64,000 nt of DNA from NCBI GenBank assembly GCA_030390025.1, contig JASTWF010000034.1, positions 1,302,001 to 1,366,000 on the forward strand. Reading direction: 5' to 3'. Position 1 is the stretch's first letter; each line of letters starts with the position of its first letter. The DNA comes from Squalus acanthias. Lineage: Eukaryota. Below the pieces are notes generated by a model that did not search any database, was not told where the DNA came from, and saw only the letters and a program-made list of their open reading frames with translations. Positions 1 through 24,848 of this stretch are shown one piece after another. A program made the position numbers and the translations under genes.

Positions 1-501
1 GTCCCAATGTTGTCATCCTGCTGCCATGTCTCTGTAATGGCTATCAGATTGTACTTATTTAATTCTATTTGCGCCATCAGTTCATCTGTTTTGTTTCGAA
101 TGCTACGTGCATTCAGATACAGAGCCTTTAATTTTGTCCTTTTATTATTTTTGTAACCTTTAGCCTTATCTGCTGATTTACTCTTAGATTTGTACTCTCT
201 ATCCCTTCCCGTCACGGTCTGTTTATCATTTCCCATATTAATACCTTTCTCTTTTGTCTTGTTTCTACTCTTTGAATTACCACATCTTCCCAGATTTGAT
301 CCCTGGCCCCCAATATTTAGTTGAAAGCCCTCTCCACCGCCCTAGTTATATGACCCTCCAGAACACTGGTCCCAGCACGGTTCAGGTGAAGACCAACCCA
401 ACGGTACAGATCCCACTTTCCCCAGTACTGGAGCTAGTGCCCCAGGAAGCAAAACCAATTTCTCCCATACCAGTCTTTGAGCTACGCATACATCTCTCTA
501 A
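1..501 (-). mobile_element. CR1-type LINE fragment (end of ORF1 esterase + start of ORF2 APE endonuclease)
   Basis: Minus strand of 1-126 reads ALYLNARSIRNKTDELMAQIELNKYNLIAITETW (APE N-terminal motif); 320-500 resembles the decayed esterase C-terminus seen at 25578-25700. Confidence 0.8.
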
Positions 502-1510
502 TTTGATGGAACAGGGTAGAGGGAGCTTTACTCTGTATCTAACCCGTGCTGTATCTGCCCTGGGAGTGTTTGATGGGTATTTGTAGAGGGAGCTTTACTC
601 TGTATCTAACCCGTGCTGTACCTGCCCTGGGAGTGTTTGATGGGTCTTTGTAGAGGAAGCTTTACTTTGTATCTAACCCGTGCTGTATCTGCCCTGGGAG
701 TGTTTGATGGGTATTTGTAGAGGGAGCTTTACTCTGTACCTAACCCGTGCTGTACCTGTCCTGGGAGAGTTTGATGGGTCTTTGTAGAGGGAGCTTTACT
801 CTGTATCTAACCCGGGCTGTATCTTCCTGGGAATATTTGAAGGGACAATGTAGAGGAAGCTTTACTTTGCATCAATCCCTGTGCTGTACCTGCCCTGGGA
901 GTGTTCGATAGGTCTTTGTAGAGGGTGCTTTACTCTGTACCTAACCCTGGCTGTACCTGCCCTGGAAATGTTTGATGTCAGTGTCCAGCAAGCTTCACTC
1001 TACATCTAAACTGTTCTGTAACTGCCCTGGCACTTTTTGATAGGACATTGTAAAGGGAGCTTTACTCTGTACCTAACCCATGCACTACTTGCCTTGCGAG
1101 TGTTAGATGGGACAGTGAAGACGGAGCTTTACTCTATATCTAACCTGTGCTGTACTTGCCCTGAGAGTGTTTGTGGGACAGTGTAGAGGGAGCTTTATTC
1201 GGTATCTAACGCGGGCTGTGCCTACCCTGGGATTGTATGATGGGATTCTGTAGAGGTATCTTAAATCTGCATCTAACCCGTGCTGTACCTGGCCTGGGAG
1301 TATTTGATGGGTCTTTGTAAAGGCAGCTTTACTCTGTATCTAACCCGTGCTGTACCTGCCCTGGGAGTGTTTGTTGGGACAGTGTAGAGGGAGCCTTACT
1401 CTGTATCTAACCCGTGCTGTACCTGCCCTGGGAGTGTTTGATGGGACAGTGTAGAGGGAGCTTTACTTTGTATTTAACCCATGCTGTACCTGCCCCGTGT
1501 GTATTTGATG
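502..1510 (+). repeat. 67-bp tandem satellite, left part
   Basis: Unit GTAGAGGGAGCTTTACTCTGTATCTAACCCGTGCTGTACCTGCCCTGGGAGTGTTTGATGGG...; AACCCG recurs at 541 and 608. Confidence 0.95.
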
Positions 1511-1566
1511 GACAAAATTGAGAGGTCGCACAACACCAGGTTATAGTCCAACAGTTTTATTTGAAA

Positions 1567-1604
1567 TCACAAGCTTTCGGAACTATCGCTCCTTCCTCAG
1601 GTGA
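1567..1604 (-). ncRNA. Minimal type-I hammerhead ribozyme in left pLTR
   Basis: Reverse complement of 7171-7208: TCAC-CTGAGGA-A-GGAGC GATA GTTCC-GAAA-GCTT-GTGA. Confidence 0.8.
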
Positions 1605-1943
1605 AGTAAATTGGATACAGAATCGTCAGAGCATATATAGATGGAAAAAAAAGCATGTGTACTTTACAATTGCAGACCAATAAATTAAATCATCCTGACT
1701 ATCTGCCGAGGTGTGATAAAGTTAATTAAGTCAGCCAGGAAGGTACCACATCAAAAGACATAGCAAGATACAACTGAGACAATGAGGTGAAGTCGCAGGG
1801 GTTCTAACGTGTCAAAAGCTGCCGTCTGTATGTAAAACGAAAAGCTTTAAAAAAAAAAAAAATTTACTTTTTTACTGGGAAAATTTTTACTTTTTTACTG
1901 GGAATCACATCTGTGAACAAGCTAACGACGACTCGAGTCCGGA

Positions 1944-4622
1944 TCACGTCATGTATCGTGACATAAACCCAAGATCCCGATTGAGACCGTCTTCATGAGT
2001 GCAGAACTTGGCTATCAGTTTCTGCTCGATGATTTTGCGTTGTCGTGTGTTTCTAAGGTTGCCTTGGAGAACGCTTACCCGCAGATCCGAGGCTGAATGT
2101 CCTTGACTGCTGAAGTGTTCCCCGACTGGGAGGTAACAATCCTGCCTGGCGATTGTTGCGCGGTGCTCGTTCATACGTTGTCTCAGTGTCTGCATGGTCT
2201 CGCCGATGTACCATGCCGCGGTGCATTCTTTCCTGCAACGTATGAGGTAGACAACGTTGGCCGAGTCACATGAGTATGTACCATGTACCTGGTGGGTAGT
2301 GTCCTCACGTGTGATGGTGGTATCTGTGTTGATGATCTGGCATGTCTTGCAGAGTTTGCCATGGCAGGGTTGTGTGGTGTCGTGGTCGCTGTTATCCTGA
2401 AAGCTGGGTAATTTGCTGCGAACGATGGTACTTCTGAGGTTAGGCGGCTGTTTGAAGGCAAGTAGTGGAGGCGTGGGGATGGCCTTAGCGAGGTGTTTGT
2501 CGTCATCGATGACATGTTGAAGGCTGCGAAGAACATGTCGTAGTTTCTCCGCTCCGGTGAAGTACTGGACGACGTAGGGTACCCTGTTGGTTGTGTCCCG
2601 TGTTTGCCTTCTGAGGAGGTCTATGCGATTTTTCGCTGTGGCCCGTCGGAACTGTCGATCGATGAGTCGAGCGTCATATCCCGTTCTTACGAGGGCGTTT
2701 TTCAGCGTCCGTAGGTGTCCATCGCGTTCCTCCTCGTCTGAGCAGATCCTGTGTATTCGCAGGGCTTGTCCATAGGGGATGGCTTCTTTAACATGGTTAG
2801 GGTGGAAGCTGGAGAAGTGGAGCATCGTGAGGTTGTCCGTGGGCTTGCGGTAGAGTGAAGTGCTGAGGTGTCCGTCTTTGATGGAGATTCGTGTGTCCAG
2901 GAATGAGACCGATTCTGAGGAGTAGTCCATGTTGAGTTTGATGGTGGGATGGAACTTGTTTATGTTATCGTGTAGTCTTTTCAGTGATCCTTCGCCATGG
3001 GTCCAAAGGAAGAAAATGTCGTCGATGTATCTGGTGTACAGCGTTGGCTGGAGGTCCTGTGCAGCGAAGAAGTCTTGCTCGAACTTGTGCATGAAGATGT
3101 TGGCGTATTGGGGTGCGAATTTGGTCCCCATGGCTGTTCCGTGTGTTTGGGTAAAAAAATGGTTGTCGAAGGTGAAGACATTGTGGTCAAGGATGAAGCG
3201 GATGAGTTGTAGGATGGCGTCTGGAGATTGGCTGTTGTTGATGTTGAGTACTGAGGCTGTTGCAGCGATGCCGTCATCGTGGGGGATACTGGTGTAGAGT
3301 GCCGATACGTCCATCGTGGCAAGGAGTGTTCCTGGTTCAACTGGTCCGTGGGTGCTGAGTTTCTGTAAGAAGTCTGTAGTGTCGCGACAGAAGCTGGGGG
3401 TTCCCTGTACGATGGGTTTCAGAATGCCCTCGACGTATCCAGAGAGGTTCTCACACAGGGTTCCATTGCCTGATACGATAGGACGTCCGGGTGTGTTGGC
3501 TTTGTGTATCTTTGGGAGGCAGTAGAAGTCTCCCACGCGGGGAGTACGTGGGATGAGAGCGCGTAGGATGTTTTGAAGGTCTGGATCGAAGGTCTTGATC
3601 AGTCTATTGAGTTGGCGGGTGTGTTCTTTGGTCGGATCTGCGGGTAGCTGTCTGTAGTGTTCCTGGTTGTCCAGTTGTCGGTATGCTTCTTTACAATAGT
3701 CCGTTCTGTTCTGTATGACGATGGCTCCTCCTTTGTCCGCTGGTTTGATGACAATGTTGCGGTTGGTCTTGAGAGCGTGGATGGCGTTGCGTTGTGCTCG
3801 GGTGACATTCTGGACTGTCTTGTGAGTGCGGCTGATGAATCTGGCGTTGATGCATTTCCTGACAGCTTGAGCATACATGTCAAGCTTGGGGCAGCGACCC
3901 TCCGGAGGGGTCCAGTTTGACTCTTTTTTCTTCGGTTGCTGCACTGCGAGTCCCTCTGTCTGCTGTTCTGGATCATTGATTGTCTCATTGGGTTTGTTGC
4001 TGACATCTTGGGATTTGTGGAAGTATTCCCGGAGCCTCATTCTCCTGATGAATTCCTCCGTGTCTGCCGCGAGACCGATGGGGTCCATTTTGGTGGTTGG
4101 GCAGAACTTGAGCCCTAGGGCGAGAACTTCGATTTCGTCTGGTTGAAGGGTATGGTCGGACAAGTTGACGATGGACTTCCCTGTGGTTGCAGCCGTGGTA
4201 CCGGGGGAGGCTTGGTTGCTGCTGGTGGTGATGCCGAGTTTCTCAAGCTTCCTGTTCTTGATGCGCATGTAGGCAGCGTAGTTCCGTTGCCTCGTCTGTT
4301 TGGTGGTGTCTCGTAACTGGTCTGCTGTGTCCTGAGCACAGGCTGAGAGCATGGACTCTATCTTGGTTTCGAGGTTGTGGCGTTTGCTGTAGAGCTGGTG
4401 TACGAGATGGTTGAGGAGTGTGCGAGAGGTACGACGGCAGAGTCTCTCAGCGTAGTCTGTGTTGTATGTCGACTTGAGTGGGTTCGTGATCTGTAGTCCT
4501 TTCGGGATCTTGTCTGCTTTCTTGCATCTCTGTAGATACTTGATGTCGGTGTCGATATGCGCGATCTTCTTGGCGATTCTCTCCACTTTGAGCCGGCAGT
4601 TTGTGGTGTCGATAGTGGTCAT
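1944..4622 (-). CDS. PLE polyprotein: reverse transcriptase + Cys linker + GIY-YIG endonuclease (apparently full length, ~892 aa)
   Basis: Uninterrupted ORF with IKPADKGG, GTAMGTKFAPQYANIFM, RYIDDIF (RT), CHGKLCKTC linker and VVYLIRC..C..AWYIGET (GIY-YIG). First ATG is at 4622 (MTTIDTTNC); the ORF-track start at 4631 lies across the inversion junction. Confidence 0.93.
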   Translation of the reverse strand: MTTIDTTNCRLKVERIAKKIAHIDTDIKYLQRCKKADKIPKGLQITNPLKSTYNTDYAERLCRRTSRTLLNHLVHQLYSKRHNLETKIESMLSACAQDTADQLRDTTKQTRQRNYAAYMRIKNRKLEKLGITTSSNQASPGTTAATTGKSIVNLSDHTLQPDEIEVLALGLKFCPTTKMDPIGLAADTEEFIRRMRLREYFHKSQDVSNKPNETINDPEQQTEGLAVQQPKKKESNWTPPEGRCPKLDMYAQAVRKCINARFISRTHKTVQNVTRAQRNAIHALKTNRNIVIKPADKGGAIVIQNRTDYCKEAYRQLDNQEHYRQLPADPTKEHTRQLNRLIKTFDPDLQNILRALIPRTPRVGDFYCLPKIHKANTPGRPIVSGNGTLCENLSGYVEGILKPIVQGTPSFCRDTTDFLQKLSTHGPVEPGTLLATMDVSALYTSIPHDDGIAATASVLNINNSQSPDAILQLIRFILDHNVFTFDNHFFTQTHGTAMGTKFAPQYANIFMHKFEQDFFAAQDLQPTLYTRYIDDIFFLWTHGEGSLKRLHDNINKFHPTIKLNMDYSSESVSFLDTRISIKDGHLSTSLYRKPTDNLTMLHFSSFHPNHVKEAIPYGQALRIHRICSDEEERDGHLRTLKNALVRTGYDARLIDRQFRRATAKNRIDLLRRQTRDTTNRVPYVVQYFTGAEKLRHVLRSLQHVIDDDKHLAKAIPTPPLLAFKQPPNLRSTIVRSKLPSFQDNSDHDTTQPCHGKLCKTCQIINTDTTITREDTTHQVHGTYSCDSANVVYLIRCRKECTAAWYIGETMQTLRQRMNEHRATIARQDCYLPVGEHFSSQGHSASDLRVSVLQGNLRNTRQRKIIEQKLIAKFCTHEDGLNRDLGFMSRYMT

Positions 4623-6830
4623 ACCCTTCAACCAGACGAAATCGAAGTTCTCGCCCTAGGGCTCAAGTTCTACCCAACCACCAAAATGGACCCCATCGGT
4701 CTCGCGGCAGACACGGAGGAATTCATCAGGAGAATGAGGCTCCGGGAATACTTCCACAAATCCCAAGATGTCAGCAACAAACCCAATGAGACAATCAATG
4801 ATCCAGAACAGCAGACAGAGGGACTCGCAGTGCAGCAACCGAAGAAAAAAGAGTCAAACTGGACCCCTCCGGAGGGTCGCTGCCCCAAGCTTGACATGTA
4901 TGCTCAAGCTGTCAGGAAATGCATCAACGCCAGATTCATCAGCCGCACTCACAAGACAGTCCAGAATGTCACCCGAGCACAACGCAACGCCATCCACGCT
5001 CTCAAGACCAACCGCAACATTGTCATCAAACCAGCGGACAAAGGAGGAGCCATCGTCATACAGAACAGAACGGACTATTGTAAAGAAGCATACCGACAAC
5101 TGGACAACCAGGAACACTACAGACAGCTACCCGCAGATCCGACCAAAGAACACACCCGCCAACTCAATAGACTGATCAAGACCTTCGATCCAGACCTTCA
5201 AAACATCCTACGCGCTCTCATCCCACGTACTCCCCGCGTGGGAGACTTCTACTGCCTCCCAAAGATACACAAAGCCAACACACCCGGACGTCCTATCGTA
5301 TCAGGCAATGGAACCCTGTGTGAGAACCTCTCTGGATACGTCGAGGGCATTCTGAAACCCATCGTACAGGGAACCCCCAGCTTCTGTCGCGACACTACAG
5401 ACTTCTTACAGAAACTCAGCACCCACGGACCAGTTGAACCAGGAACACTCCTTGCCACGATGGACGTATCGGCACTCTACACCAGTATCCCCCACGATGA
5501 CGGCATCGCTGCAACAGCCTCAGTACTCAACATCAACAACAGCCAATCTCCAGACGCCATCCTACAACTCATCCGCTTCATCCTTGACCACAATGTCTTC
5601 ACCTTCGACAACCATTTTTTTACCCAAACACACGGAACAGCCATGGGGACCAAATTCGCACCCCAATACGCCAACATCTTCATGCACAAGTTCGAGCAAG
5701 ACTTCTTCGCTGCACAGGACCTCCAGCCAACGCTGTACACCAGATACATCGACGACATTTTCTTCCTTTGGACCCATGGCGAAGGATCACTGAAAAGACT
5801 ACACGATAACATAAACAAGTTCCATCCCACCATCAAACTCAACATGGACTACTCCTCAGAATCGGTCTCATTCCTGGACACACGAATCTCCATCAAAGAC
5901 GGACACCTCAGCACTTCACTCTACCGCAAGCCCACGGACAACCTCACGATGCTCCACTTCTCCAGCTTCCACCCTAACCATGTTAAAGAAGCCATCCCCT
6001 ATGGACAAGCCCTGCGAATACACAGGATCTGCTCAGACGAGGAGGAACGCGATGGACACCTACGGACGCTGAAAAACGCCCTCGTAAGAACGGGATATGA
6101 CGCTCGACTCATCGATCGACAGTTCCGACGGGCCACAGCGAAAAATCGCATAGACCTCCTCAGAAGGCAAACACGGGACACAACCAACAGGGTACCCTAC
6201 GTCGTCCAGTACTTCACCGGAGCGGAGAAACTACGACATGTTCTTCGCAGCCTTCAACATGTCATCGATGACGACAAACACCTCGCTAAGGCCATCCCCA
6301 CGCCTCCACTACTTGCCTTCAAACAGCCGCCTAACCTCAGAAGTACCATCGTTCGCAGCAAATTACCCAGCTTTCAGGATAACAGCGACCACGACACCAC
6401 ACAACCCTGCCATGGCAAACTCTGCAAGACATGCCAGATCATCAACACAGATACCACCATCACACGTGAGGACACTACCCACCAGGTACATGGTACATAC
6501 TCATGTGACTCGGCCAACGTTGTCTACCTCATACGTTGCAGGAAAGAATGCACCGCGGCATGGTACATCGGCGAGACCATGCAGACACTGAGACAACGTA
6601 TGAACGAGCACCGCGCAACAATCGCCAGGCAGGATTGTTACCTCCCAGTCGGGGAACACTTCAGCAGTCAAGGACATTCAGCCTCGGATCTGCGGGTAAG
6701 CGTTCTCCAAGGCAACCTTAGAAACACACGACAACGCAAAATCATCGAGCAGAAACTGATAGCCAAGTTCTGCACTCATGAAGACGGTCTCAATCGGGAT
6801 CTTGGGTTTATGTCACGATACATGACGTGA
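4557..6830 (+). CDS. PLE RT+GIY-YIG, 5'-truncated second copy with chimeric 21-aa N-terminus
   Basis: Translation identical to the minus ORF from HTLQPDEIEV onward except C>Y (KFYPTT); the first 21 aa come from the antisense strand of the other arm. Confidence 0.85.
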   Translation: MRDLLGDSLHFEPAVCGVDSGHTLQPDEIEVLALGLKFYPTTKMDPIGLAADTEEFIRRMRLREYFHKSQDVSNKPNETINDPEQQTEGLAVQQPKKKESNWTPPEGRCPKLDMYAQAVRKCINARFISRTHKTVQNVTRAQRNAIHALKTNRNIVIKPADKGGAIVIQNRTDYCKEAYRQLDNQEHYRQLPADPTKEHTRQLNRLIKTFDPDLQNILRALIPRTPRVGDFYCLPKIHKANTPGRPIVSGNGTLCENLSGYVEGILKPIVQGTPSFCRDTTDFLQKLSTHGPVEPGTLLATMDVSALYTSIPHDDGIAATASVLNINNSQSPDAILQLIRFILDHNVFTFDNHFFTQTHGTAMGTKFAPQYANIFMHKFEQDFFAAQDLQPTLYTRYIDDIFFLWTHGEGSLKRLHDNINKFHPTIKLNMDYSSESVSFLDTRISIKDGHLSTSLYRKPTDNLTMLHFSSFHPNHVKEAIPYGQALRIHRICSDEEERDGHLRTLKNALVRTGYDARLIDRQFRRATAKNRIDLLRRQTRDTTNRVPYVVQYFTGAEKLRHVLRSLQHVIDDDKHLAKAIPTPPLLAFKQPPNLRSTIVRSKLPSFQDNSDHDTTQPCHGKLCKTCQIINTDTTITREDTTHQVHGTYSCDSANVVYLIRCRKECTAAWYIGETMQTLRQRMNEHRATIARQDCYLPVGEHFSSQGHSASDLRVSVLQGNLRNTRQRKIIEQKLIAKFCTHEDGLNRDLGFMSRYMT

Positions 6831-7170
6831 TCCGGACTCGAGTCGTCGTTAGCTTGTTCACAGATGTGATTCCCAGTAAAAAAGTAAAAATTTTCCCAGT
6901 AAAAAAGTAAATTTTTTTTTTTTTTTAAAGCTTTTCGTTTTACATACAGACGGCAGCTTTTGACACGTTAGAACCCCTGCGACTTCACCTCATTGTCTCA
7001 GTTGTATCTTGCTATGTCTTTTGATGTGGTACCTTCCTGGCTGACTTAATTAACTTTATCACACCTCGGCAGATAGTCAGGATGATTTAATTTATTGGTC
7101 TGCAATTGTAAAGTACACATGCTTTTTTTTCCATCTATATATGCTCTGACGATTCTGTATCCAATTTACT

Positions 7171-7208
7171 TCACCTGAGGAAGGAGCGATAGTTCCGAAA
7201 GCTTGTGA
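7171..7208 (+). ncRNA. Minimal type-I hammerhead ribozyme in right pLTR
   Basis: Stem I TCAC/GTGA, core CTGAGGA, stem II GGAGC/GTTCC, GAAA, palindromic AAGCTT in place of stem III; AATAAA follows immediately. Confidence 0.82.
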
Positions 7209-7297
7209 TTTCAAATAAAACTGTTGGACTATAACCTGGTGTTGTGCGACCTCTCAATTTTGTCCACCCCAGTCCAACACCGGCATCTCCGCATCAT

Positions 7298-8525
7298 GTA
7301 TTTGATGTGACAGTGAAGAGGGAGCTTTACTCTGTATCTAACCCGTGCACTACCTGCCCTGCGAGTGTTTGATGGGGCAGTGTAGAGGGAACTTTACTCT
7401 TTAACTAACCCATGCACTAACTGCCCAGCGAGTGTTTGATGGGACAGTGTAGAGGGAGCTTTACTCTGAACCTAACCCGTGCACTACCTGACCTGCGAGT
7501 GTTTGATGGGGCAGTGTAGAGGGAACTTTACTCTTTAACTTACCCATGCACTACCTGCCCTGGGAGTGTTGGATGCAACTGTGTAGAGGGAGCTCTACTC
7601 TATATCTAACCATTGTTCTATCTGCACTTCGTGTGTTTGATGGCACAATGTATAGTGAGCTATACTCTATATCGAACCCGTGCAGTACCTGGCCTGGGAG
7701 TGTTTGTTGGAACAGGATAGAGGGGTCTTTACTCAATATCTAACCCGTGCTGTACCTGCCCTGGGAGTGTTTGATGGGACAGGATAGAGGGGTCTTTACT
7801 CAGTATCTAACCCGTGCTGTACCTGCCCTGGGAGTGTTTGATGGGGCAGTGTAGAGGCAGCTTTACTCTATCTCTAACCATTGCTGTACCTGCCTTGGAA
7901 ATGTTTGATGGGACAGTGTAGAGGGATCTTTAATCTGTATCTAAACCGTACTGTTCCTGCCCTGTGAGTGTTTGATGGGACAGTGTAGAGGGAGCTTCTA
8001 CTCTGCATCTAACTCGTGCTGTAGCTGCCTGGGAATGCTTGTTGGGACAGTATAGAGAGAGCTTTACTCTGTATGTAACCCTTGCTGCACAATGTTTGAT
8101 GGCATAATGTGGAGAGAGCATTACTCTGTATTTAACCCGTACTCAACCTGCCCTGGGAGTGTGTTTTGGGACAGTGTAGAGGAAGCTTTACTCTGTATCT
8201 GAACCTTGCTGTACATGCCCTGGGAGTGTTTGATGGGACAGTGCAGAGGGAGCTTTACTCTGTATCTAAACCGTACTGTTCCTGCCCTGGGAGTGTTTGA
8301 TGGGACAGTGTAGAGGGAGCGTTACTCTGTATCTGAACCTTGCTGTTCCTTCCCTGGGAGTGCAAAAACGGGCAGTGTATTGTGCGCTTTACTCTATATC
8401 TAACCCATGCTGTACCTAACCTGCGAGTGTTTGATGGGACAGTGCAGAGGGATCTTTACTAAGTATCTAACAAATGCTGTACCTGCACTGGGACTGTTTG
8501 ATGGGACAGTGTAGTGGGAGCCTTA
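7298..8525 (+). repeat. 67-bp tandem satellite, right part
   Basis: Same unit as 502-1510, continuing after the PLE TSD. Confidence 0.95.
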
Positions 8526-8845
8526 TAACTCGTTATAACATTAGAATCCTTAATAAACATTTACAAAAAGTGTATAACGGGTTATTAAGGATTATAATGA
8601 TTTATAAAGGGTCATGTCCCTTTATCATATTTTGCATCACTTTGTACCCCATTCAAATCACTTTATAATCCTTTGTCAATCATTATAACACTTTATAAGC
8701 CTTTGTAGATCATTACAACCCTTTATATTCCTTAACAATTCATAACACTTTATATTCTATTATCAACCTTTATATATCATTATAATACTTTCTATTCATT
8801 TATAATAATTTATAACCCTGCATAATCCTTTATAACCCTTTATAA
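8526..8845. repeat. AT-rich low-complexity tract (TTATAA-based)
   Basis: Repeated TTTATAA/TTATAAC words. Confidence 0.6.
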
Positions 8846-8849
8846 AGCG

Positions 8850-9700
8850 TCAGGATACAACGTAGGGATGATGGGTCGGTACTCAAATTGGCAGGATGTG
8901 ACTCCTGGTGTCCGGCAGGGCTGTGTTTTTTGGCCTCAGCTATTCACAATATTTATTAATGACTTCGGTGATGTCATAGAAAGTCATATACCCAAATGTG
9001 CCGATGACACAAAGATAGGCAGCATTATAGGCAGTGTAGGTGAAACCATAAAATTACAAAGGGATTTTGACAGATTAAGGGAATGGGCAAAACTATGGCA
9101 AATGGATTTCAATGTAAGCAAATGTGAGGTCAATCACTTTGGACCCTAAAAGGAAAGAACAGGTTACTTTCTAAATGGAGAAAAGCTAAAAAGAGTGGAT
9201 GTCCAAAGAGAGTTGGGGGGTCCAGGTACATAGATCATTAAAATGTCATGGACAGGTACAGAAAATAATCAAAAAGGCTAATGGAAAGCTGGTCTTTATA
9301 TCTAAAGGACTAGATTACAAGGGGCTAGAAGTTATTCTGCAGCTATACAAAACCCTGGTTAGACCACACCTGGAGTATTGTGAGCAGTTCTGGGCACCAC
9401 ACCTTAGGAAGGATATATTGGGCTTGAAGGGAGTGCAGCACAGGTTTACCAGAATGATACCCAGACTTCAAGGATTAAGTTACGAGGAGAGATGAGGGTT
9501 CTATTCCCTAGAATTTAGAAGGTTAAGGGGTGATCTGAGCGAAGTTTTCAGGATATTAAGGGGAACAGATAGAGTAGATAGCGAGAAACTATTTCCATTG
9601 GTGGGGATACTAAGACTGGAGGCACAGTCTAAGAATTAGAGGCAGTCCTTTCAGGAGTGAAATTTGCAAACACTTCGACACACAAAGTGGGAGAAATTTG
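8850..9700 (+). mobile_element. CR1 LINE RT 3' fragment (decayed)
   Basis: GVRQGCVFWPQLFTIFIND, ADDTKIG, LYKTLVRPHLEYC; interrupted by stops/frameshifts. Confidence 0.88.
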
Positions 9701-12180
9701 GACGGTTTAGATAGAGAGATACAGAGTAAAGCTCTCTTTACACTGTCCAATCAAACGGTCCAAGGGCAGGTATAGCACCGGTTAGCGGGAGAGATACAGA
9801 GTAAAGCTCCCTTTACACTGCCCAATCAAACACTCCAAGGGCAGGTATAGCACGGGTTAGATAGAGAGATACAGAGTAAAGCTCCCATTACACTTCCCAA
9901 TCAAACAGTCCAAGGGCAGGTGCAGTATGGCTTAGAGAGAGAGATACACAATAAAGCTTCCTTTAAACTGTCCAATCAAACAGTCCAAGGGCAGGTAATG
10001 CACGGGTGAGATAGAGAGATACAGAGTAAAGCTCCCTTTACACTGCCCAATCAAACAGTCCAAGGGCAGGTATAGCACGGGTTAGATAGAGAGATACAGA
10101 GTAAAGCTCCCTTTACACTGCCCAATCAAACAGTCCAAGGGCAGGTACAGCACGGTTTAGATAGAGAGATACAGAGTAAAGCTCCCTTTACACTGTCCAA
10201 TCAAACAGCCCAAGGGCAGGTATAGCACCGGTTAGATCGAGAGATACAGAGTAAATCTCCCTTTACACTGTCCAATCAAACAGTCCAAGGGCAGGTATAG
10301 CACAGGTTAGATCGAGAGATACAGAGTTAGCTCCCTTTACACTGTCCAATCAAACAGTCCAAGGGCAGGTATAGCACAGGTAAGATAGAGAGATACAGAG
10401 TAAAGCTCCCTTTACACTGCCCAATCAAAAAGTACAAGGGCAGGTACAGCACCGGTTAGATCGAGAGATACAGAGTAAAGCTCCCTTTACACTGCCCAGT
10501 CAAACAGTCCAAGGGCAGGTATAGCACTGGTTCGATCGAGAGATACAGAGTAAAGCTCCCTTTAAACTGCCCAATCAAACAGTCCAAGGGCAGGTACAGC
10601 ACGGGTTAGATCGAGAGTAAAGCTCACTTTACACTGCCCAATTAAACAGTCCAAGGGCAGGTACAGCACCGGTTAGATCGAGAGATACAGAGTAAAGCTC
10701 CCTTTAAATTGCCCAATCAAACAGTCCAAGGGCAGGTATAGCACCGGTTAGATAGAGAGATACAGAGTAAAGCTCCCTTTACACTGCCCAATCAAACAGT
10801 CCAAGGGCAGGTATAGAACCAGTTAGAGAGAGAGATACAGAGTAAAGCTCCCTTTACACTGCCAAATCAAACAGTCCAAGGGCAGGTATACAACCGGTTA
10901 GATCGAGAGATACAGAGTAAAGCTCCCTTTACACTGTCCAATCAAACAGTCCAAGGGCAGGTATAGCACGGGTGAGATCGAGAGATACAGAGTAAAGCTC
11001 CCTTTACACTGTCCAATCAAACAGTCCAAGGGCAGGTATAGCACCGGTTAGATCGAGAGATACAGAGTAAAGCTCCCTTTAAACTGCCCAATCAAACAGT
11101 CCAAGGGCAGGTACAGCATGGTTTAGATCGAGAGTAAAGCTCACTTTACACTGCCCAATTAAACAGTCCAAGGGCAGGTACAGCACCGGTTAGATCGAGA
11201 GATACAGAGTAAAGCTCCCTTTAAATTGCCCAATCAAACAGTCCAAGGGCAGGTATAGCACCGGTTAGATCTCCCTTTACACTGCCCAGTCAAACAGTCC
11301 AAGGGCAGGTATAGCACTGGTTAGATCGAGAGATACATAGTAAAGCTCCCTTTAAACTGCCCAATCAAACAGTCCAAGGGCAGGTACAGCACGGTTTAGA
11401 TCGAGAGTAAAGCTCACTTTACACTGCCCAATTAAACAGTCCAAGGGCAGGTACAGCACCGGTTAGATCGAGAGATACAGAGTAAAGCTCCCTTTAAATT
11501 GCCCAATCAAACAGTCCAAGGGCAGGTATAGCACCGGTTAGATCGAGAGATACAGAGTAAAGCTCCCTTTACACTGCCCAATCAAACAGTCCAAGGGCAG
11601 GTATAGAACCGGTTAGAGAGAGAGATACAGAGTAAAGCTCCCTTTACACTGCCCAATCAAACAGTCCAAGGGCAGGTATAGAACCGGTTAGATCGAGAGA
11701 TACAGAGTAAAGCTCCCTTTACACTGTCCAATCAAACAGTCCAAGGGCAGGTGTAGCACCGGTTAGATAGAGAGATACAGAGTAAAGCTCCCTTTACACT
11801 GCCCAATCAAATAGTCCAAGGGCAGGTACAGCACCGGTTAGATCGAGAGATACAGAGTAAAGCTCCCTTTACACTGCCCAATCAAACAGTCCAAGGGCAG
11901 GTACAGTACAGGTTAGAGAGAGAGAGATACAGTGTAAAGCTCTCTTTACACTGTCCAATCAAACGGTCCAAGGGCAGGTATAGCACCGGTTAGGTAGAGA
12001 GATACACAATAAAGCTCCCTTTACACTGCCCAATCAAACAGTGCAAGGGCAGGTATAGCACAGGTTAGATAGAGAGATACAGAGTAAAGCTCCCTTTACA
12101 CTGCCCAATCAAACAGTCCAAGGGCACGAACAGCACGGGTTAGATATAGAGATACAGACTAAACCTTCCTTTGCACTTTC
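9701..12180 (-). repeat. 75-bp tandem satellite; inverted variant of the 67-bp unit with an 8-bp insertion
   Basis: Period 75 (ACAGAGTAAAG at 10021 and 10096); GGTTAGATAGAGAGATACAGAG vs GGTTAGATACAGAG in the reverse complement of the 67-mer; degenerate units continue to ~12400. Confidence 0.95.
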
Positions 12181-13356
12181 CACTCAAACACTCGCAGAGC
12201 AGGTACAGCGCGGGGGCATGCAAAGCTCCCTCTAATACAGGATGTGCAGCGTACAGCTCCCTTGACACTACCCAATGAAGCACAACGAGCTCGGGTACAG
12301 CATGGGATAAATACGGAATAAAGATCTCACTACAAGCAAGTGTCAAACACTCCCGGGTGTGGTACGGGCAAGATTTATCTCCGAGTTAAGCTCCGCTTAA
12401 CTTGCCAAACCTAAGGCCGAGCCTGATGGCAGATGTTGAACAGCTCCCAGAATCTGGTTAGACTCTCACCTCAGCAGAATCGTGGACTGATGGGATTCTC
12501 AGTAAAGTTCCTCACCTTTCCAATCATTGTTGAAGCTTCCCGTTTTATCCCGTCTCCGACACTGGGGTTCTCCATCCCACCGGATCTGCTCTGTGAAACC
12601 AGCGACATTTCTCGAGTCCCAGTCAGTGAGGCGATGATTCGACTTCTCTCTCTCCCCCTTCCTGAGATATTGCTCACTCCCAGAGACTGTCAATAGAAAA
12701 ATGATAAATATTAATCCCAGAATACAGGGGGAGCATTTTTCTGACCATAAATATATTCAATTTGATTATTTTTGCAATTAATCAGTGTGTTTGAATTACT
12801 TACTTTAATATTGAATAGTTCTTTTCTGTCCATTGCCCTGTTTATTGGTACTAAACTCACCCCCAGTGTCAGCTGTCACTCCAGCTCCTCCCACACTGAC
12901 ATCCCACTGATGGGCTGTAACCAGGGGCAGGGCCCTGTCTCCAGGTGACATCACACAGCAGCTAGGTAGGAACGATGTCAGAAAGCGGCCGGAGCCCCTC
13001 CCACTCGAGGTGTCACAGGGTCACATTGACCAGGCTCTGCTCCTGGTGTGCAGTCTTACTGGGCATGAACACAGGGTGTTCATCAGCCCCGTCTCCGGGA
13101 ATGAACCGGGATCCTGCCCTACATCTCTCCCGGGTTTTATTTCCATCGGTGTAAAATGGATGGCTGATTCACAATTACCCAGTTTGTACTATAGCACCTA
13201 CTAAACGTCAAACTCTACCCCAGTATTTCTTTCCTTCTCTACGTATCTGCTCCCTCACTGTCTCTGCCTCTCTCTCTCTCTTTCTCTCTCTCTCTGCAGT
13301 GAGGGATACGTCTGGGGCTGGGATCAAACTGTGCGGAAAGGATCAGAATATCAGTT

Positions 13357-13933: not shown

Positions 13934-14050
13934 TATAGAATCATAGAATGGATACAGCACAGAAGGAGACATTACGGCCCATCGAGCCCGTGCCAGCTCT
14001 CTGCAAGAGCACTTCAGCAAGTGCCACTTATCCAATCCCCTTTTGATATA
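13934..14050 (-). mobile_element. CR1 3' tail remnant (left arm of an inverted duplication)
   Basis: ATAGAATCATAGAAT terminal microsatellite; reverse complement of 20595-20712. Confidence 0.7.
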
Positions 14051-14460
14051 TTCCACACCCCTCACTGTAACAAAGATATACCCCACACCCCTCACAGTAA
14101 CTTTGATATACCCCTCACGCACACTGATATAACCCACACCCCTCACTGTAACACTGATATACCCCACACCCCTCACTGTAACACTGACATACCCCACACC
14201 CCTCACTGTAACACTGATATACCCCACACCCCTCACTATAACACTGATATACCCTACACGCCTCACTGTAACACTGGTATACCACACACCCCTCACTGTA
14301 ACACTGATATATCCCACACCCCTCACTGTAACACGGATATACCCCAGACCCCTCACTATAACACGGATATATCCCACACCCCTCACTGTAACACTGATAT
14401 ACCTCACACACCTCACTATAACACACGGAAATACACCACACCTCTCACTGTAACACACAT
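14051..14460 (-). repeat. 30-bp minisatellite, inverted short array
   Basis: Unit CCCCACACCCCTCACTGTAACACTGATATA. Confidence 0.92.
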
Positions 14461-14496
14461 ATATACCCAACAGGCCTCACAGTAACACTATGATTC

Positions 14497-15648: not shown

Positions 15649-18600
15649 GAGGGGTGTGGGTTATATCAGTGTTACAGTGAGGGGTGTGGGGTATATCAGT
15701 GTTACAGTGAGCGGTCTGGGGTATATCAGTGTTACAGTGAGGGGTGTGGGGTATATCAGTGTGCGTGAGGGGTATATCAAAGTTACTGTGAGGGGTGTGG
15801 GGTATATCAGTGTTACACTGAGGCATGTGGGGTATATCAGTGTTACAGTGAGGGGTGTGGGGTATTTCAGTGTTACAGTGAGGGGTGTGGGGTATATCAG
15901 TGTTACAGTGACGGGTGTGGGGAATATCAGTGTTACAGTGAGGGATGTGGGGTATAGCAGTGTTACAGTGAGAGGTGTGGGATATATCAGTGTTACAGTG
16001 AGGGGTGCGTGGTATATCAGTGTTACAGTGAGGGGTGTGGGGTATATCAGTGTTACAGTGAGGGGTGTTGGGTATATCAGTGTTAGTGAGGGGTGTGGGG
16101 TATATCAGTGTTACATTGAGGGGTGTGGGCTATATCAGTGTTACAGTGAGGGGTGTGGGGTATATCAGTGTTACAGTGAGGGGTGTGGGGTATATCAGTG
16201 TTAGTGAGGGGTGTGGGTTATATCAGTGTTACAGTGAGGGGTGTGGGGTATATCAGTGTTACAGTGAGGGGTGTGGGGTATATCAGTGTTACAGTGAGGG
16301 GTGTGGGGTATATCAGTGTGCGTGAGGGGTATATCAAAGATACTGTGAGGGGTGTGGGGTATATCAGTGATACACTGAGGCATGTGGGGTATATCAGAGT
16401 TACAGTGAGGGGTGTGTGGTATTTCAGTGTTAAAGTGAGGGATGTGGGGTATATCAGTGTTACAGTGACGGGTGTGGGGAATATCAGTGTTACAGTGTGG
16501 GGTGTGGGGTATATCAGTGTTACAGTGAGAGGTGTGGTGTATATCAGTGTTACAGTGAGGGGTGTGTGGTATATCAGTGTTACAGTGAGGGGTGTGGGGT
16601 ATATCAGTGTTACAGTGAGGGGTGTGGGGTATATCAGTGTTAGTGAGGGGTGTGGGGTATTTCAGTGTTACATTGAGGGGTGTGGGCTATATCAGTGTTA
16701 CAGTGAGGTTTGTGGGGTATATCAGTGTTAAAGTGAGGGGTGTGGGGTATATCAGTGTTACAGTGAGGGGTGTGGGGTACATCAGTATGCGTGAGGGGTG
16801 TGGGATATATCAGTGTTGCATTGAGTGGTGTGGGGTATATCAGTGTTACAGTGAGGGGTGTGGGGTATATCAGTGTTACAGTGAGGGGTGTGGGGTATAT
16901 CAGTGTTAGTGAGGGGTGTGGAGTATACCAGTGTTACAGTGAGGGGTGTGGGCTATATCAGTGTTACAGTGAGCGGTGTGGGGTATATCAGTGTTACAGT
17001 GAGGGGTGTGGGGTATATCAGTGTTACAGTGAGGGGTGTGGGGTACATCAGTGTGCGTGAGGGGTGTGGGATATATCAGTCTTACAGTGAGGGGTGTGGG
17101 GTATATCAGTGTTACAGTGAGGGGTGTGGGGTATATCAGTGTTACGGTGAGGGGTGTGGGTTATATCAGTGTTACAGTGAGGGGTGTGGGGTATATCAGT
17201 GTTACAGTGAGGGGTGTGGGGTATATCAGTGTTACAGTGATGGTTGTGGGGTATATCAGTGTGCGTGAGGGGTATATAAAAGTTACTGTGAGGGGTGTGG
17301 GATATATCAGTGTTACACTGAGGCATGTGGGGTATATCAGTGTTACAGTGAGGGGTGTGGGGTATGTCAGTGTTACAGTGAGGGTGTGGGTTATATCTGT
17401 TACGGTGAGGGTTGTGGGGTATATCAGTGTTGCAGTGAGGGGTGTGGGGTATATTAGTGTTACAGTGAAGGGTGTGGGGTCTATCAGTGTTACAGTGAGG
17501 GGTGTGGGGTCTATCAGTGTTATCGTGAGGGGTGTGGGGTATATCAGTGTTAGTGAGGGGTGTGGGGTATCTCAGTGTTACAGTGAGAGGTGTGGTGTAT
17601 ATCAGTGTTACAGTGAGGGGTGTGTGGTATATCAGTGTTACAGTGAGGGGTGTGGGGTATATCAGTGTTACAGTGAGGGGTGTGGGGTATATCAGTGTTA
17701 GTGAGGGGTGTGGGGTATATCAGTGTTACATTGAGGGATGTGGGCTATATCAGTGTTAAAGTGAGGTGTGTGGGGTATATCAGTGTTACAGTGAGGGGTG
17801 TGGGGTATATCAGTGTTCCAGTGAGGGGTGTGGGGTACATCAGTATGCGTGAGAGGTGTGGGATATATCAGTGTTACAGTGAGGGGTGTGGGGTATATCA
17901 GTGTTAGTGAGGGGTGTGGGGTATATCAGTGTTACATTGAGGGGTGTGGGCTATATCAGTGTTACAGTGAGGGGTGTGGGGTATATCAGTGTTACAGTGA
18001 GTGGTGTGGGGTATATCAGTGTTAGTGAGGGGTGTGGGTTATATCAGTGTTACAGTGAGGGGTGTGGGGTATATCAGTGTTACAGTGAGGGGTGTGGGGT
18101 ATATCAGTGTTACAGTGAGGGGTGTGGGGTATATCAGTGTGCGTGAGGGGTATATCAAAGATACTGTGAGGGGTGTGGGGTATATCAGTGTTACACTGAG
18201 GCATGTGGGGTATATCAGAGTTACAGTGAGGGGTGTGTGGTATTTCAGTGTTACAGTGAGGGATGTGGGGTATATCAGTGTTACAGTGACGGGTGTGGGG
18301 AATATCAGTGTTACAGTGAGGGGTGTGGGGTATATCAGTGTTACAGTGAGGTGTGTGGGGTATATCAGTGTTAGTGAGGGGTGTGGGGTATTTCAGTGTT
18401 ACATTGAGGGGTGTGGGCTATATCAGTGTTAGTGAGGTGGGTGGGGTATCTCAGTGTTACAGTGAGAGGTGTGGTGTATATCAGTGTTACAGTGAGGGGT
18501 GTGGGTATATCAGTGTTACAGTGAGGGGTGTGGGGTATATCAGTGTTACAGTGAGGGGTTTGGGGTATATCAGTGTTACAGTGAGGGGTGTGGGGTACAT

Positions 18601-20590
18601 CAGTATGCGTGAGGGGTGTGGGATATATCAGTGTTGCATTGAGTGGTGTGGGGTATATCAGTGTTACAGTGAGGGGTGTGGGGTATATCAGTGTTACAGT
18701 GAGGGGTGTGGGGTATATCAGTGTTAGTGAGGGGTGTGGGGTATATCAGTGTTACAGTGAGGGGTGTGGGCTATATCAGTGTTACAGTGAGGGGTGTGGG
18801 GTATATCAGTGTTACAGTGAGGGGTGTGGGGTATATCAGTGTTACAGTGAGGGGTGTGGGGTACATCAGTGTGCGTGAGGGGTGTGGGATATATCAGTCT
18901 TACAGTGAGGGGTGTGGGGTATATCAGTGTTACAGTGAGGGGTGTGGGGTATATCAGTGTTACGGTGAGGGGTGTGGGTTATATCAGTGTTACAGTGAGG
19001 GGTGTGGGGTATATCAGTGTTACAGTGAGGGGTGTGGGGTATATCAGTGTTACAGTGAGGGGTGTGGGGTATATCAGTGTGCGTGAGGGGTATATAAAAG
19101 TTACTGTGAGGGGTGTGGGATATATCAGTGTTACACTGAGGCATGTGGGATATATCAGTGTTACAGTGAGGGGTGTGGGGTATCTCAGTGTTACAGTGAG
19201 GGTGTGGGTTATATCTGTTACGGTGAGGGTTGTGGGGTATATCAGTGTTGCAGTGAGGGGTGTGGGGTATATTAGTGTTACAGTGAAGGGTGTGGGGTCT
19301 ATCAGTGTTACAGTGAGGGGTGTGGGGTCTATCAGTGTTCTCGTGAGGGGTGTGGGGTATATCAGTGTTAGTGAGGGGTGTGGGGTATCTCAGTGTTACA
19401 GTGAGAGGTGTGGTGTATATCAGTGTTACAGTGAGGGGTGTGTGGTATATCAGTGTTACAGTGAGGGGTGTGGGGTATATCAGTGTTACAGTGAGGGGTG
19501 CGGAGTATATCAGTGTTAGTGAGGGGTGTGGGGTATATCAGTGTTACATTGAGGGGTGTGGGCTATATCAGTGTTACAGTGAGGGGTGTGGGGTACATCA
19601 GTATGCGTGAGGGGTGTGGGATATATCAGTGTTGCAGTGAGGGGTGTGGGGTATATCAGTGTTACAGTGAGGGGTGTGGGGTATATCAGTGTTACAGTGA
19701 GGGGTTTGCGGTATATCAGTGTTAGTGAGGGGTGTGGGGTATATCAGTGCTACAGTGAGGGGTGTGGGCTATATCAGTGTTACAGTGAGGGGTGTGGGGT
19801 ATATCAGTGTTACAGTGAGGGGTGTGGGGTATATCAGTGTTACAGTGAGGGGTGTGGGGTACATCAGTGTGCGTGAGGGCTGTGGGATATATCAGTCTTA
19901 CAGTGAGGGGTGTGGGGTGTATCAGTGTTACAGTGAGGGGTGTGGGGTATATCAGTGTTACGGTGAGGGGTGTGGGTTATATCAGTGTTACATTGAGGGG
20001 TGTGGGGTATATCAGTGTTACAGTGAGGGGTGTGGGGTATATCAGTGTTACAGTGAGGGTTGTGGGGTATATCAGTGTGCGTGAGGGGTATATAAAAGTT
20101 ACTGTGAGGGGTGTGGGGTATATCAGTGTTACACTGAGGGTGTGGGTTATATCTGTTACGGTGAGGGTTGTTGGGTATATCAGTGTTGCAGTGAGGGGTG
20201 TGAGGTATATTAGTTTTACAGTGAAGGGTGTGGGGTCTATCAGTGTACCAGTGAGGGGTGTGGGGTCTATCAGTGTTATCGTGAGGGGTGTGGGGTATAT
20301 CAGTGTTAGTGAGGGGTGTGGGGTATATCAGTGTTACAGTGAGGGTTGTGGGGTATATCAGTGTTACATTCAGGGGTGTGGGGTATATCAGTGTTACAGA
20401 GACGGGTGTGGGTTATATCAGTGTTACAGTGAGGTGTGTGGGGTATATCAGTGTTACAGTGAGGGGTGTGGGATATATCAGTGTTACAGTGAGGGATGTG
20501 GGGTATATCAGTGTTACAGTGAGGGGTGTGGGATATATCAGTGTTACACTGAGGGGTCTGTGGTATATCAGTGCTTTACAGTTAGGGCTG
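15649..20590 (+). repeat. 30-bp G-rich minisatellite with higher-order duplications
   Basis: Unit GTGAGGGGTGTGGGGTATATCAGTGTTACA; variant blocks recur at offsets of 1818 and 998 bp. Confidence 0.96.
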
Positions 20591-20594
20591 TCGA

Positions 20595-20712
20595 GTATAT
20601 CAAAAGGGGATTGGATAAGTGGGACTTGCCGAAGTGTTCTTGCAGAGAGCCGGCACGGGCTCGATGGGCCGTAAGGCCTCCTTCTGTACTATATCCATTC
20701 TGTGATTCTATA
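20595..20712 (+). mobile_element. CR1 3' tail remnant (right arm of the inverted duplication)
   Basis: GGGCTCGATGGGCCG..GGCCTCCTTCTGT..ATTCTGTGATTCTAT. Confidence 0.7.
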
Positions 20713-21501: not shown

Positions 21502-22651
21502 ATGCCCTTTTGCAATCGATTGTTCTTCCTCCTCTGTGTGATTACGTATCTGAGAATTTTCGAATACAGACAACGAATCAGACGGAGGAACCAAGCCCGT
21601 CTCCTCCAGAGAAGGAGAAACTACTACCCACCAAATAGTGTACAGGCAGAGGCTGTCATTTGAGATGCTGTCGGAGGAGCTGTGTGTGAGGAGGCTGCGC
21701 TTCAGTAAAGAGTCAATTGGCCGAATCTGTGAGATGTTACAGGAGGACCTTCAAACACGCACGAAGAACCGCAATGCATTGTCACTGAGCATGAAGGTAA
21801 CCACAGCACTGAACTTCTTTGCAAGTGGGACTTTTCAGGCAAGCACCGGTGACATTTGCAACATATCCAAGAATGCTGCGAGGGCCTGCATTCACCAGGT
21901 CACAGAAGCCATTTACCGTAGGGCTTCTGAGTTCATTAAGTATGACTTGTCTGCTCGCCATCAAAAGGAGATGGCGCTTGCATTTCATAACATTGCTGGA
22001 TTCCCCAAAGTGATTGGGGCTGTCGATGGAACCCATGTAGCATTGAAGGCACCAGGGGTTGCACCTGTGACATTTATCAACAGGAAGGGGTTTCATTCAC
22101 TGAATGTCCAGATTGTCTGTGATGCGCATCTCAGGATCTTAAATGTGAATGCAGGTAACCGTGGAAGTAATCATGACTCCTTCGTCCTCCGTAACTCTGA
22201 CTTATATGGCGTCCTCAATGCATTGCCTCCAGGATCCGCATGGATATTGGGCGACAAGGGCTACCCGCTAAGACCATGGCTGATGACTCCCTACCGCAAG
22301 ACCAATAATGAGGCTCAGGAGAGATACAACCAGGCACACGTGTCCACACGGCAAGTGGTGGAGAGGACAATTGGAGTTCTGAAATCACGCTTCCGGTGCC
22401 TGGACAGGTCAGGGGGGACCTTGCAGTATTCTCCTCAGAAAGTGGCAAAGATTGTGGTGGCCTGTTGTGCTTTGCATAACTTTGCCCTGCAGGAAGGACT
22501 GACCCTTAACGCTGCAGATGAACTACCTGCAGAAATGGAGGACGTGGACAATGCCAATGTGCCTGTGGGAAGGCATGATGGGGAAGAGCCAACTGCTGCT
22601 CAAAGTAAGGCTGCAAGGGAGCAGCTGGTAGCCAACACCTTCACGAGGTAG
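21502..22651 (+). CDS. Harbinger (HARBI1-like) DDE transposase; probable frameshift near 21636
   Basis: GAVDGTHV, ILGDKGYPL, RQVVERTIGVLKSRFRCL motifs. The ATG at 21502 opens MPFC...RRRNYYPP in another frame that would join VYRQRLSF at 21638. Confidence 0.88.
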
Positions 22652-22664
22652 TGTCGCCTTGTAC

Positions 22665-22795
22665 CTCCCGCTCCCCCTCCCCTCTCCCCCTCCCCCTCCC
22701 CTCTCCCCCTCCCCTCTCCCCATCCCCCTCCCCTCTCCCCCTCCCCCTCCCTCTCCCCATCCCTCTCCCTCTCCCCCTCCCCCTCCCTCTCCACC
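22665..22795 (+). repeat. (CCCCCT/CCCTCT)n polypyrimidine tract between the Harbinger genes
   Basis: Direct reading. Confidence 0.9.
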
Positions 22796-23297
22796 AGCAA
22801 GGCAAATAAAGGTACAGACACAATTTAAAGTGAAACAGTGCTCTTTTATTGCAGCATTACAGACTTCTGAGGTTCATTGTTGCTTTACATAGTTTATAAC
22901 TTTTCAATGTTAACTAGCTACTTTTCAACTTTGTAAACAATCGTAAACAGAAATAGGTTTTTCAAAAATTTGTTAACAGTTCTCAGTAACTTTTTTGCTT
23001 CGTTAATGCAGTAAAGACATTCAAGATGGGAAATAACTCTTTCCTATATGTAAACAAGTTTAAATGTTCAATTTTTTTGTGAAAATAAACAATTTGAATT
23101 TTTATAAAGTGACTAAAGGCTGTACTTTTTCAATGAAAAGCTAACTTTCAGTTTCAGTGTCAAATATATATATAAATAAAGAAAAATGTAAACATGTAAG
23201 TTTTAAATAAAACTAAAAAGTAAACACTTGAGAAATTTAACCACAAATAAACTATTCCTGAGGGTCAATGGATGTGCATTGTGGAACATGCAACACC

Positions 23298-24848
23298 CTA
23301 ACGTCTCTTGCGCTTTCTTGATTGCAGCATCGTTGGTGGCTCTTGGACCTGCACTGATTCTGCGCTGGGAGCAGGTAAGGTTGGTTCTGATGGAGTCACA
23401 GTAATTGCAGCAGAAATTATTCGCATGAGTCCTTCAAGAGACTCATTTATTTTACTAAGCTGCACTCCCACCAGTCCTTCAAGAGACTCATTTAATTTAC
23501 TAAGCTGCACTCCCACATCGGGTTTCTGCAACATTCCTTCAAGAAAATCATTTATTTTACTAAGCTGCACTCCCACATCGGGTTTCTGCAACATTCCTTC
23601 AAGAGACTCATTTATTTTACTAAGCTGCACTCCCACATCGGGTTTCTGCAACATTCCTTCAAGAGACTCATTTATATTCTTAAGCTCCATTCCCAGATTT
23701 CCCAATCCCTGCTTGACCAAGGTAAGACAATCAACTTCTTTCTCTGAAATAGAAGAGATCGATTGAGTCAAGCCTACAAGTTGGTGGATGTCACCATGCA
23801 TCACCTGTTCTGCTGCATATATATCTGTGTCTCCCACAGGCACTGTAGTATCAAGCTGCTGTCTGTTTGGCACAGAGCCAGATGGGCCAGGAGTTGGAGA
23901 GGAAGATTGAGAGGACCTCTCCTGCAACCCAGATTCCAGAGCCTCCATGTTTAATTCAGCAAAAACTTCCTCCTGCTGCTCCTCCACCAACACCTCACTC
24001 GCATCTCCCACTGGCTCAACATGCCCTTCACTAATGACCTCTTCGGCTGCAGACTCAACGCACTGCTCATCCCGTGACTGAGAAGTATGCTCTAAACCTA
24101 TGTAAAGGAAACAGTAAAGATTAGCAAAGGTAAAGCATGATGTGCCACATCACAGAAGCTATTCAGCACACATCACCTTTGTCGAATCGTTCATTTCCAA
24201 AGGGACATCCGCTAAGATATCCAAAGATATGCTCGAGCCTTTCCTCATGTTCGGTTAAAGCCCTTAACATGACAACACCACCGCCTGTCAGTGAACGTTC
24301 TCTGGCGTTGTGAGCAGTTTTACTCTAAAATTGAAAATGAAAATCTGAAATGTAAGGGTTTTTACACCAGAACTGCATTGGCACTCACACAGTTAACTCA
24401 GTAAGCAACTCAAAGCATTTCAATCAAGATGACATTAGCATTTTATGAGACTTGCCTGGCTACAAAAGCCACAAAAATTTATGGTAGCATCTTGTGACTT
24501 CAGTTAACTCAGCTTAGCAAACAAACACTTTTTCAAGGCTTTTCATTTTAAATGTAAAGACATTTTAACATTGACTTTTGTTATAACTATACAAACCTTC
24601 AGCGTTCGATATAAATCGCTGAATTTTTTGCGACATTGCTCAGCTGTACGTGGAATGGTCGAGGTTGCGCTCACACTTTGAGCAACCTCTTTCCACGCTG
24701 CCATTTAGCCTTTTCGCGGCGGCTTGGACTTCTGAGTTCCAATTATCCGTGAACGTTTCGATTCTACCTCGTCAAGAAGTGTACGGAGATCATCATCACT
24801 GAAATTCTGTGTTCTTTTGATAAATTGGATAGTGCTGATAGCAGCCAT
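23298..24848 (-). CDS. Harbinger Myb/SANT-like DNA-binding partner; exons 24848-24597, 24324-24177, 24097-23298; one premature TAA at 24707-24705
   Basis: Exon 1 MAAISTIQFIKRTQNFSDDDLRTLLDEVE...G*MAAWKEVAQSVSATSTIPRTAEQCRKKFSDL; exon 2 SKTAHNARERSLTGGG; GT-AG introns keep frame into ORF 23298-24011; C-terminal SRKRKRR. Confidence 0.85.

Follow-up and report, generated by a model that had tools for sequence, protein, structure and literature searches.

The window, a 64,000-nt stretch of the Squalus acanthias genome, contains a palindrome of about 5.8 kb (1500-7307), in which two copies of a Penelope-like element (PLE) stand head to head within a 67-bp satellite. The features of the palindrome and its flanks are the following.

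502-1511, + strand: 67-bp satellite, left part, 15 units
1500-1510, + strand: 11-bp target duplication, left copy, on the satellite hot-spot site
1509-4622, - strand: left copy of the element (unit 1-3109), complete from its ATG through the short 3' end, without an upstream pLTR
1567-1604, - strand: minimal hammerhead-like motif from a motif scan, mirror of 7171-7208
1944-4622, - strand: intact 892-aa ORF with N-terminal helices, RT (DKG, YIDD), CX4CxxC linker and GIY-YIG-type endonuclease with CCHH
4155-4619, - strand: 465-bp "spacer", made up of codons 2-156 at the 5' end of the left copy
4620-4622, no strand: head-to-head joint, a 3-nt microhomology (CAT) common to both copies
4620-7298, + strand: right copy, 5'-truncated (unit 469-3141), with the long 3' end
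4686-6830, + strand: truncated, open ORF, 714 aa from the first element Met at 4686
7171-7208, + strand: minimal hammerhead-like motif (CUGANGA, stem II, GAAA, palindromic helix III)
7267-7298, + strand: 32-nt one-sided tail, which ends at the next unit's ATG
7297-7307, + strand: 11-bp target duplication, right copy
7301-8525, + strand: 67-bp satellite, right part, 18 units, continuing the register of the left part

The element unit is 3,138 bp. When 1509-4154 was aligned with the reverse complement of 4620-7266, the 2,647 columns contained one mismatch (A at 4672 versus 4102) and one gap, which is a poly(T) run of 15 T versus 14, so the arms are not far more diverged than they had appeared by eye. 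The self-alignment upholds the near-perfect arms of about 2.65 kb described in an earlier sequence-only reading, with one substitution and one poly(T) indel; the 465-bp spacer and the single 11-bp target site duplication (TSD) around the structure are also as described, and the satellite is continuous across both flanks. The palindrome is real in the assembly and is confirmed at that level. The native ATG of the left copy is at 4622, and the right arm extends 32 nt beyond the left arm. With its start at unit 469, the right copy is missing codons 1-156 and with them the long N-terminal helices. Two open RT-endonuclease ORFs had been claimed; both frames are indeed open, but only the left one is full length. 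The substitution at 4672 was seen in the right arm only, and contigs from three read runs (X1, X2 and X6) all have the left-arm base.

The 892-aa protein has an RVT_1 domain match, and the DKG motif precedes the RT core. Its CX4CxxC linker (C753-X4-C758-xx-C761) is present in 93 of the 97 relatives with a GIY-YIG-like motif among the 120 listed. VVY790, C796/C800, YIG805, R816, H820, H836, H842, E866 and N881 are conserved in 47-48 of the 48 proteins aligned, wherever they were scored. The query itself gave no match to Pfam GIY-YIG; many of its relatives are annotated with this domain. The single ORF combines RT with a C-terminal GIY-YIG endonuclease that carries CCHH and the catalytic R, H, E and N. 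The closest named proteins are from sharks (at most 92% identity over 72% of the query), followed by those from turtles, ticks and echinoderms. The structure model of the 892 residues has a mean pLDDT of 89.3, with long helices predicted at residues 6-128, and a PDB sequence search with the element protein gave 0 matches. The family has the inverted copies or partial-tandem pLTRs, the 30-40 bp tail and the TSD by which PLEs are recognized. The element is Penelope-like and of Neptune type, the clade being assigned by motifs; the proposal of a PLE with the Neptune/Nematis Cys linker holds on the same basis (CX4CxxC before GIY-YIG). The protein matches included no reference labelled by clade. In the putative hammerhead, compared with motifs in the available text of PMC4209133, the core motif and stems I and II are present; the fold z is -1.28, and Rfam gave 0 matches.

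The window also contains two further, older copies of this PLE family. One (28803-29514) is short and inverted and has a long end; the other (38403-40249) is 90% identical and has a 485-aa open frame. An open DDE_Tnp_4 transposase frame of 365 aa (21554-22651, + strand) faces a second open frame (23298-24149, - strand), and this pair (21554-24149) looks like a PIF/Harbinger-type DNA transposon. A 75-bp satellite occupies 9702-12209; by eye, its unit resembles the reverse-complemented 67-bp unit plus a short insertion. A 30-bp minisatellite is present at 14044-14489 and 15649-20602 in 15 and 169 copies, respectively. CR1-like LINE fragments with a GDSL-esterase-type ORF1 and RT lie at 25578-26393 and 28076-28768 (- strand). 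An open frame with an immunoglobulin domain (43846-44343, + strand) is probably a host-gene exon.

The 11-bp duplication contains two non-consensus satellite bases, and within window positions 1-9000 this variant is found in only two places, the two flanks. At either end of the duplication, 2 nt match the element too. The 32-nt left flank occurs once in the genome assembly, where no empty or second copy of the insertion site was found. The two arms have two variants in common that are absent from 97 other sampled places, and the closest other copy shows 2 differences over about 3.08 kb. These observations, together with the single duplication, bear out the earlier idea of one very recent insertion. 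Read runs that probably come from other individuals or species were also searched. In X1, X2 and X6 the family is present, differing from the window at many sites, and the inner and outer joints are absent; X1, X2, X9 and X13 gave neither a left-joint contig nor an empty allele, and X21 yielded no matching read. Because of the probable origin of these runs, the absence of the joints is neutral on the locus.

The 17-nt 3'-end motif of the family has 20,438 exact matches in the genome assembly, and the ORF start has 358. We sampled 97 ORF-start places besides the window, mostly on C1-C7. These places and the window yielded 95 blocks, of which three were joined manually where a short gap or later insertions separated their parts; three sampled places had no qualifying block. 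An unselected sample was obtained from the first 100 motif matches on C1, which gave 71 places after 13 duplicates were dropped, one of them without a match. The inversion of nearly the entire element had been regarded as special, and this view did not survive the census. Arms longer than those of the window were found in six of the 97 places (J32, 5,645 bp; J62, 3,549 bp; L132, 3,236 bp; L105, 3,157 bp; L073, 2,903 bp; L050, 2,863 bp), and 37 of the 70 unselected blocks are head-to-head, the longest being 2,576 bp in total. In J32 and J62, each strand carries a complete 892-aa ORF. L105 (C3:189060324-189070323, positions 1794-8179) is a 6.4-kb palindrome of two whole units with a spacer of about 50 bp and 31 differences between its arms (about 1% divergence); it is tighter and older than the window palindrome. 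Palindromes of the window's size are rare among all insertions (0/70) and ordinary among long ones. The locus is ordinary for its family, and its layout is a known one.

Other forms of the element were seen in the same samples. J32 (L032 plus L033), J62 (L062 plus L063) and L056-L058 are multi-unit insertions under one duplication, with up to about 4.3 tandem units (12 kb) and 0-3 differences from unit to unit. L097, L112, L127, L089 and L104 are short, internally deleted derivatives with duplications, in which the ORF start is joined to the 3' UTR; they are possible non-autonomous forms.

The two 3' ends of an inverted insertion are not alike. In the sample, 35 blocks (window included) have two outward 3' ends, and both ends are intact in 30 of them. 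Of these, 28 have one long and one short end, two are short-short palindromes (L127 and L078) and none has two long ends (P = 4e-7 versus 0.5). All 35 held-out inverted blocks are long-short, two damaged blocks having been set aside. Satellite junctions paired by coordinate on C1-C18 are long-short in 51 of 54 cases, short-short in three and never long-long; after cluster collapse, 42 of 44 pairs are long-short. The rule of one long and one short end is nearly strict across the three samples. One-ended blocks carry the short end in 44/60 cases (held-out, 26/32). Either of the two arms may be the longer one (17 versus 9 of 26).

The target is also defined. The most frequent duplication length is 12 bp, both in the first set (26/51) and in held-out non-satellite duplications (16/39); apparent duplications of 13-17 bp include bases common to the element. 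A five-base target motif was initially read by eye from the discovery set. In a non-redundant set of 21 sites of 12 bp, position -4 was T and position -3 was G 18 times each on the left, and 15 and 19 times, respectively, on the right. At 11 held-out sites, TG was present in 17 of the 22 half-sites; 5,000 null draws gave 1.6 on average and never more than 7, and with a shift of 1-3 the observed count drops to 0-2. The family target is a symmetric TG-N16-CA that encloses the 12-bp duplication. When the 67 phases of the satellite were scored for the motif, the window's site was the best at 8/10, the next reaching 6/10. Four junction pattern searches, which covered 62 of 67 spacings per orientation, gave 407, 285, 379 and 104 matches (1,175 in total), and the same 12-bp site was seen by eye in 100, 100, 100 and 97 of the 100 matches listed per search. 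Among nine hot-spot insertions fetched, seven have different 5' ends and two ran off the stretch; insertions with different 5' ends are independent. Some junctions were amplified with the array, 273 junctions collapsing to 161 clusters. As the satellite makes up about 0.4-1.8% of the genome, the enrichment is roughly 3- to 16-fold. X1 and X2, again probably from other individuals or species, each gave one contig with another junction at the window's satellite phase. The same few sites of a LINE, which we take to be CR1-like, were also hit repeatedly (L034, L042, L047, L067, L076, L078, L109, L127, L138, L164, L190, L204 and L208).

The layout, the end asymmetry, the 12-bp duplications in TG-N16-CA, the hot spot of the satellite and the 3-nt joint are all observed directly, and from them we infer the following course of events, which we consider likely. 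The palindrome is a single, very recent insertion of this abundant element, in which reverse transcription would have been primed at two points of the RNA, one for either end of a 12-nt staggered cut in the satellite. The enzyme, a putative dimer, would nick both strands with the 12-nt stagger. One 3' overhang would anneal by 1-3 nt at the short site; among held-out short ends, 14 of 14 share 1-3 nt with the target by eye. A little further downstream, at the long site, the other overhang would prime, probably on the unoccupied part of the same RNA, so that the two fixed start points would be about 35 nt apart. In the window, one cDNA would have covered a complete unit up to its ATG, and the other would have stopped after 2.68 kb. 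Their 3' ends would pair over CAT, and each would template the second strand of the other. The window arms would be long because both reactions ran far, and this is the only reason that we give for their length.

Some observations weigh against this two-point priming. Genomic ends cannot separate the starts of reverse transcription from later trimming, and short-short insertions exist (2/30 and 3/54). Of 37 joints without inserted bases, 30 overlap by 1-5 nt (chance 42%). However, at 46 of the 83 head-to-head joints 1-23 bases are inserted or unaligned, which counts against joining by clean overlap. The window arms derive from one source; their common variants show a common source locus and not a common molecule. 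Independently inserted neighbours show differences at 14 (L039) and 40 (L103) subfamily sites. A single RNA molecule would explain why the second primer is never at the short site.

A fuller version of the two-point scheme is offered only tentatively. In this version, a symmetric, sequence-reading dimer would make the fixed 12-nt cut in TG-N16-CA, and one RNA, possibly circular, would be copied from two starts. The first copy would tend to stop in the tail at the second primer (in the window, exactly at the ATG), and the satellite spot would be a genome-wide landing pad. Among 108 ORF starts, 16 have the 5' end inside the 32-nt tail, with 7-9 expected; P is 0.002-0.015 under a constant hazard, an assumption that overstates the effect, and truncations were told from point variants by eye. 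This excess is a hint of a circular or protein-blocked template. A 5' stop exactly at the ATG was rejected as a rule: it was found in 3 of 358 exact ORF-start matches (P about 0.08-0.17, not significant alone), a fourth non-C match having been left out of the count as a point variant.

The best surviving alternative, although we think it unlikely, is that both ends were primed at the long site, or on a tandem RNA, and that the endonuclease trimmed the tail from one end of the DNA intermediate. Resolution by the endonuclease is proposed in the accessible part of PMC8557442. Short ends fall mostly at or before unit 3110, and the short-end region of the unit is similar to the target (motif score 7/10 at unit 3094), but seven other places in the unit score at least 7/10. 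In addition, the position of the short end tracks the first bases of the target (about 3109 versus about 3099 by satellite orientation), as annealed priming predicts, and the PAc enzyme begins reverse transcription at two sites in vitro (PMC11167929, as far as its available text goes).

It is less probable still that a single cDNA folded back, its 3' CAT pairing with the ATG 465 nt back, and copied itself into the second arm. The geometry of the joint permits this, self-priming is proposed in the available text of PMC3846280, and the short-short palindromes L127 and L078 exist. A fold-back from the left arm, however, offers no source for the 32-nt tail of the right arm, nor does one from the right arm account for the 465-nt spacer, unless templating took place a second time, and the long-short rule in the three samples also speaks against it. 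If "copied in inverted form" in the sequence-only reading means that one arm was copied from the other, it fits poorly, because the right arm has the tail and the left arm does not.

A fold-back artefact of the library or assembly is very improbable. Near-perfect arms might suggest one, and the window is on a 6.1-Mb contig, but a mirror artefact predicts no one-sided tail, asymmetric spacer or arm differences, and no duplication with private satellite bases in an in-register satellite; moreover, the identical layout is found at all ages, up to about 1% arm divergence. Two independent insertions, plausible in that the site is a hot spot open to repeat hits, or gene conversion between older arms are the least probable readings: there is a single duplication and no target DNA at the joint, and over its whole length, spacer region and all, the left copy shows no more than 2 differences from other young copies.

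Because its full ORF has no upstream pLTR and its other ORF is truncated, the locus is probably a dead end. The promoter of PAc is supposed to lie in the upstream pLTR in the available part of PMC11167929; if this applied to the shark element, the intact ORF would have no promoter here. The palindrome had also been proposed to silence its own family and to be cruciform-prone. Judged from the DNA, a read-through transcript could fold back; about half of the family insertions are inverted, and the family kept spreading. Cruciform extrusion over a 465-bp spacer is unlikely, and the L105 palindrome with its spacer of about 50 bp persisted to about 1% arm divergence. In Drosophila, siRNAs map to inverted Penelope copies and silencing is inefficient, according to the available text of PMC3681739. 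The likeness lies in long inverted repeats that could give dsRNA.

L1 twin priming offers a parallel outside the PLEs. In that process both target ends prime, as proposed for the window; the head-to-head joint shows microhomology and there is one TSD, as observed in the window. The second primer of L1, however, anneals at variable internal sites and little is duplicated, whereas both starts appear fixed at the unit end here, and for this reason the arms duplicate each other.

Among PLEs, the closest layout is that of Pen2a of Adineta vaga, with an inverted 5'-truncated copy, a one-sided tail of 30-40 bp and a TSD (PMC3846280 and PMC8557442 Fig. 2, in the parts available). The window is of this type, head-to-head with a single TSD and a 32-nt tail at one end, and partial tandems occur elsewhere in the family. 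It differs in that the inverted copy is 2.65 kb instead of about 0.2 kb, and in that no direct pLTR precedes the full ORF. In its motifs the protein resembles Neptune and Nematis in the accessible account of PMC8557442, sharing the C-terminal GIY-YIG, the CX2-5CxxC linker (common to these two and absent in Penelope/Poseidon), CCHH and DKG. The reported bias of Neptune/Nematis is toward microsatellites, whereas this family uses a symmetric spaced motif in the 67-bp satellite and in CR1-like LINEs. PAc, a Poseidon element of Anolis carolinensis, has in vitro two RT start sites that bound the tail, and both strands are cut and extended (PMC11167929, available part). The shark family would resemble it in the two start sites bounding the tail and in the cutting and extension of both strands, and PAc has a hammerhead near the start codon, where the shark element has a putative one; a PAc dimer is predicted via N-terminal helices, and a dimer is only putative here. 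PAc differs in lacking the Cys linker, in starting about 111-118 nt inside the ORF rather than at and just before the ATG, and in its ATT/AT-rich in vitro target versus TG-N16-CA.

As far as the available portions of PMC8557442 and PMC11167929 go, PLE integration and inverted copies with a one-sided tail are an open question, and in the former the standing view is of a moderate target preference and a variable duplication length. The available text of PMC12910113 and bioRxiv 10.64898/2026.07.22.740005 holds nothing on target sites, and literature listings, with subscription journals, Repbase and supplements outside their scope, gave no symmetric spaced PLE target. In the published descriptions available, the tail is optional or often one-sided and TSD length varies, whereas here the long-short rule is near-strict, the mode is 12 bp and the motif symmetric. 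The strict end rule, the symmetric 12-bp target and the satellite hot spot are what this family adds to the known layout. The palindrome itself adds little; the family, however, is a large natural data set, in which long arms allow a test of a common template for both halves. The published in vitro assay could test its sharp predictions: that the target is defined and symmetric, that the stagger is 12 nt and that there are two starts.
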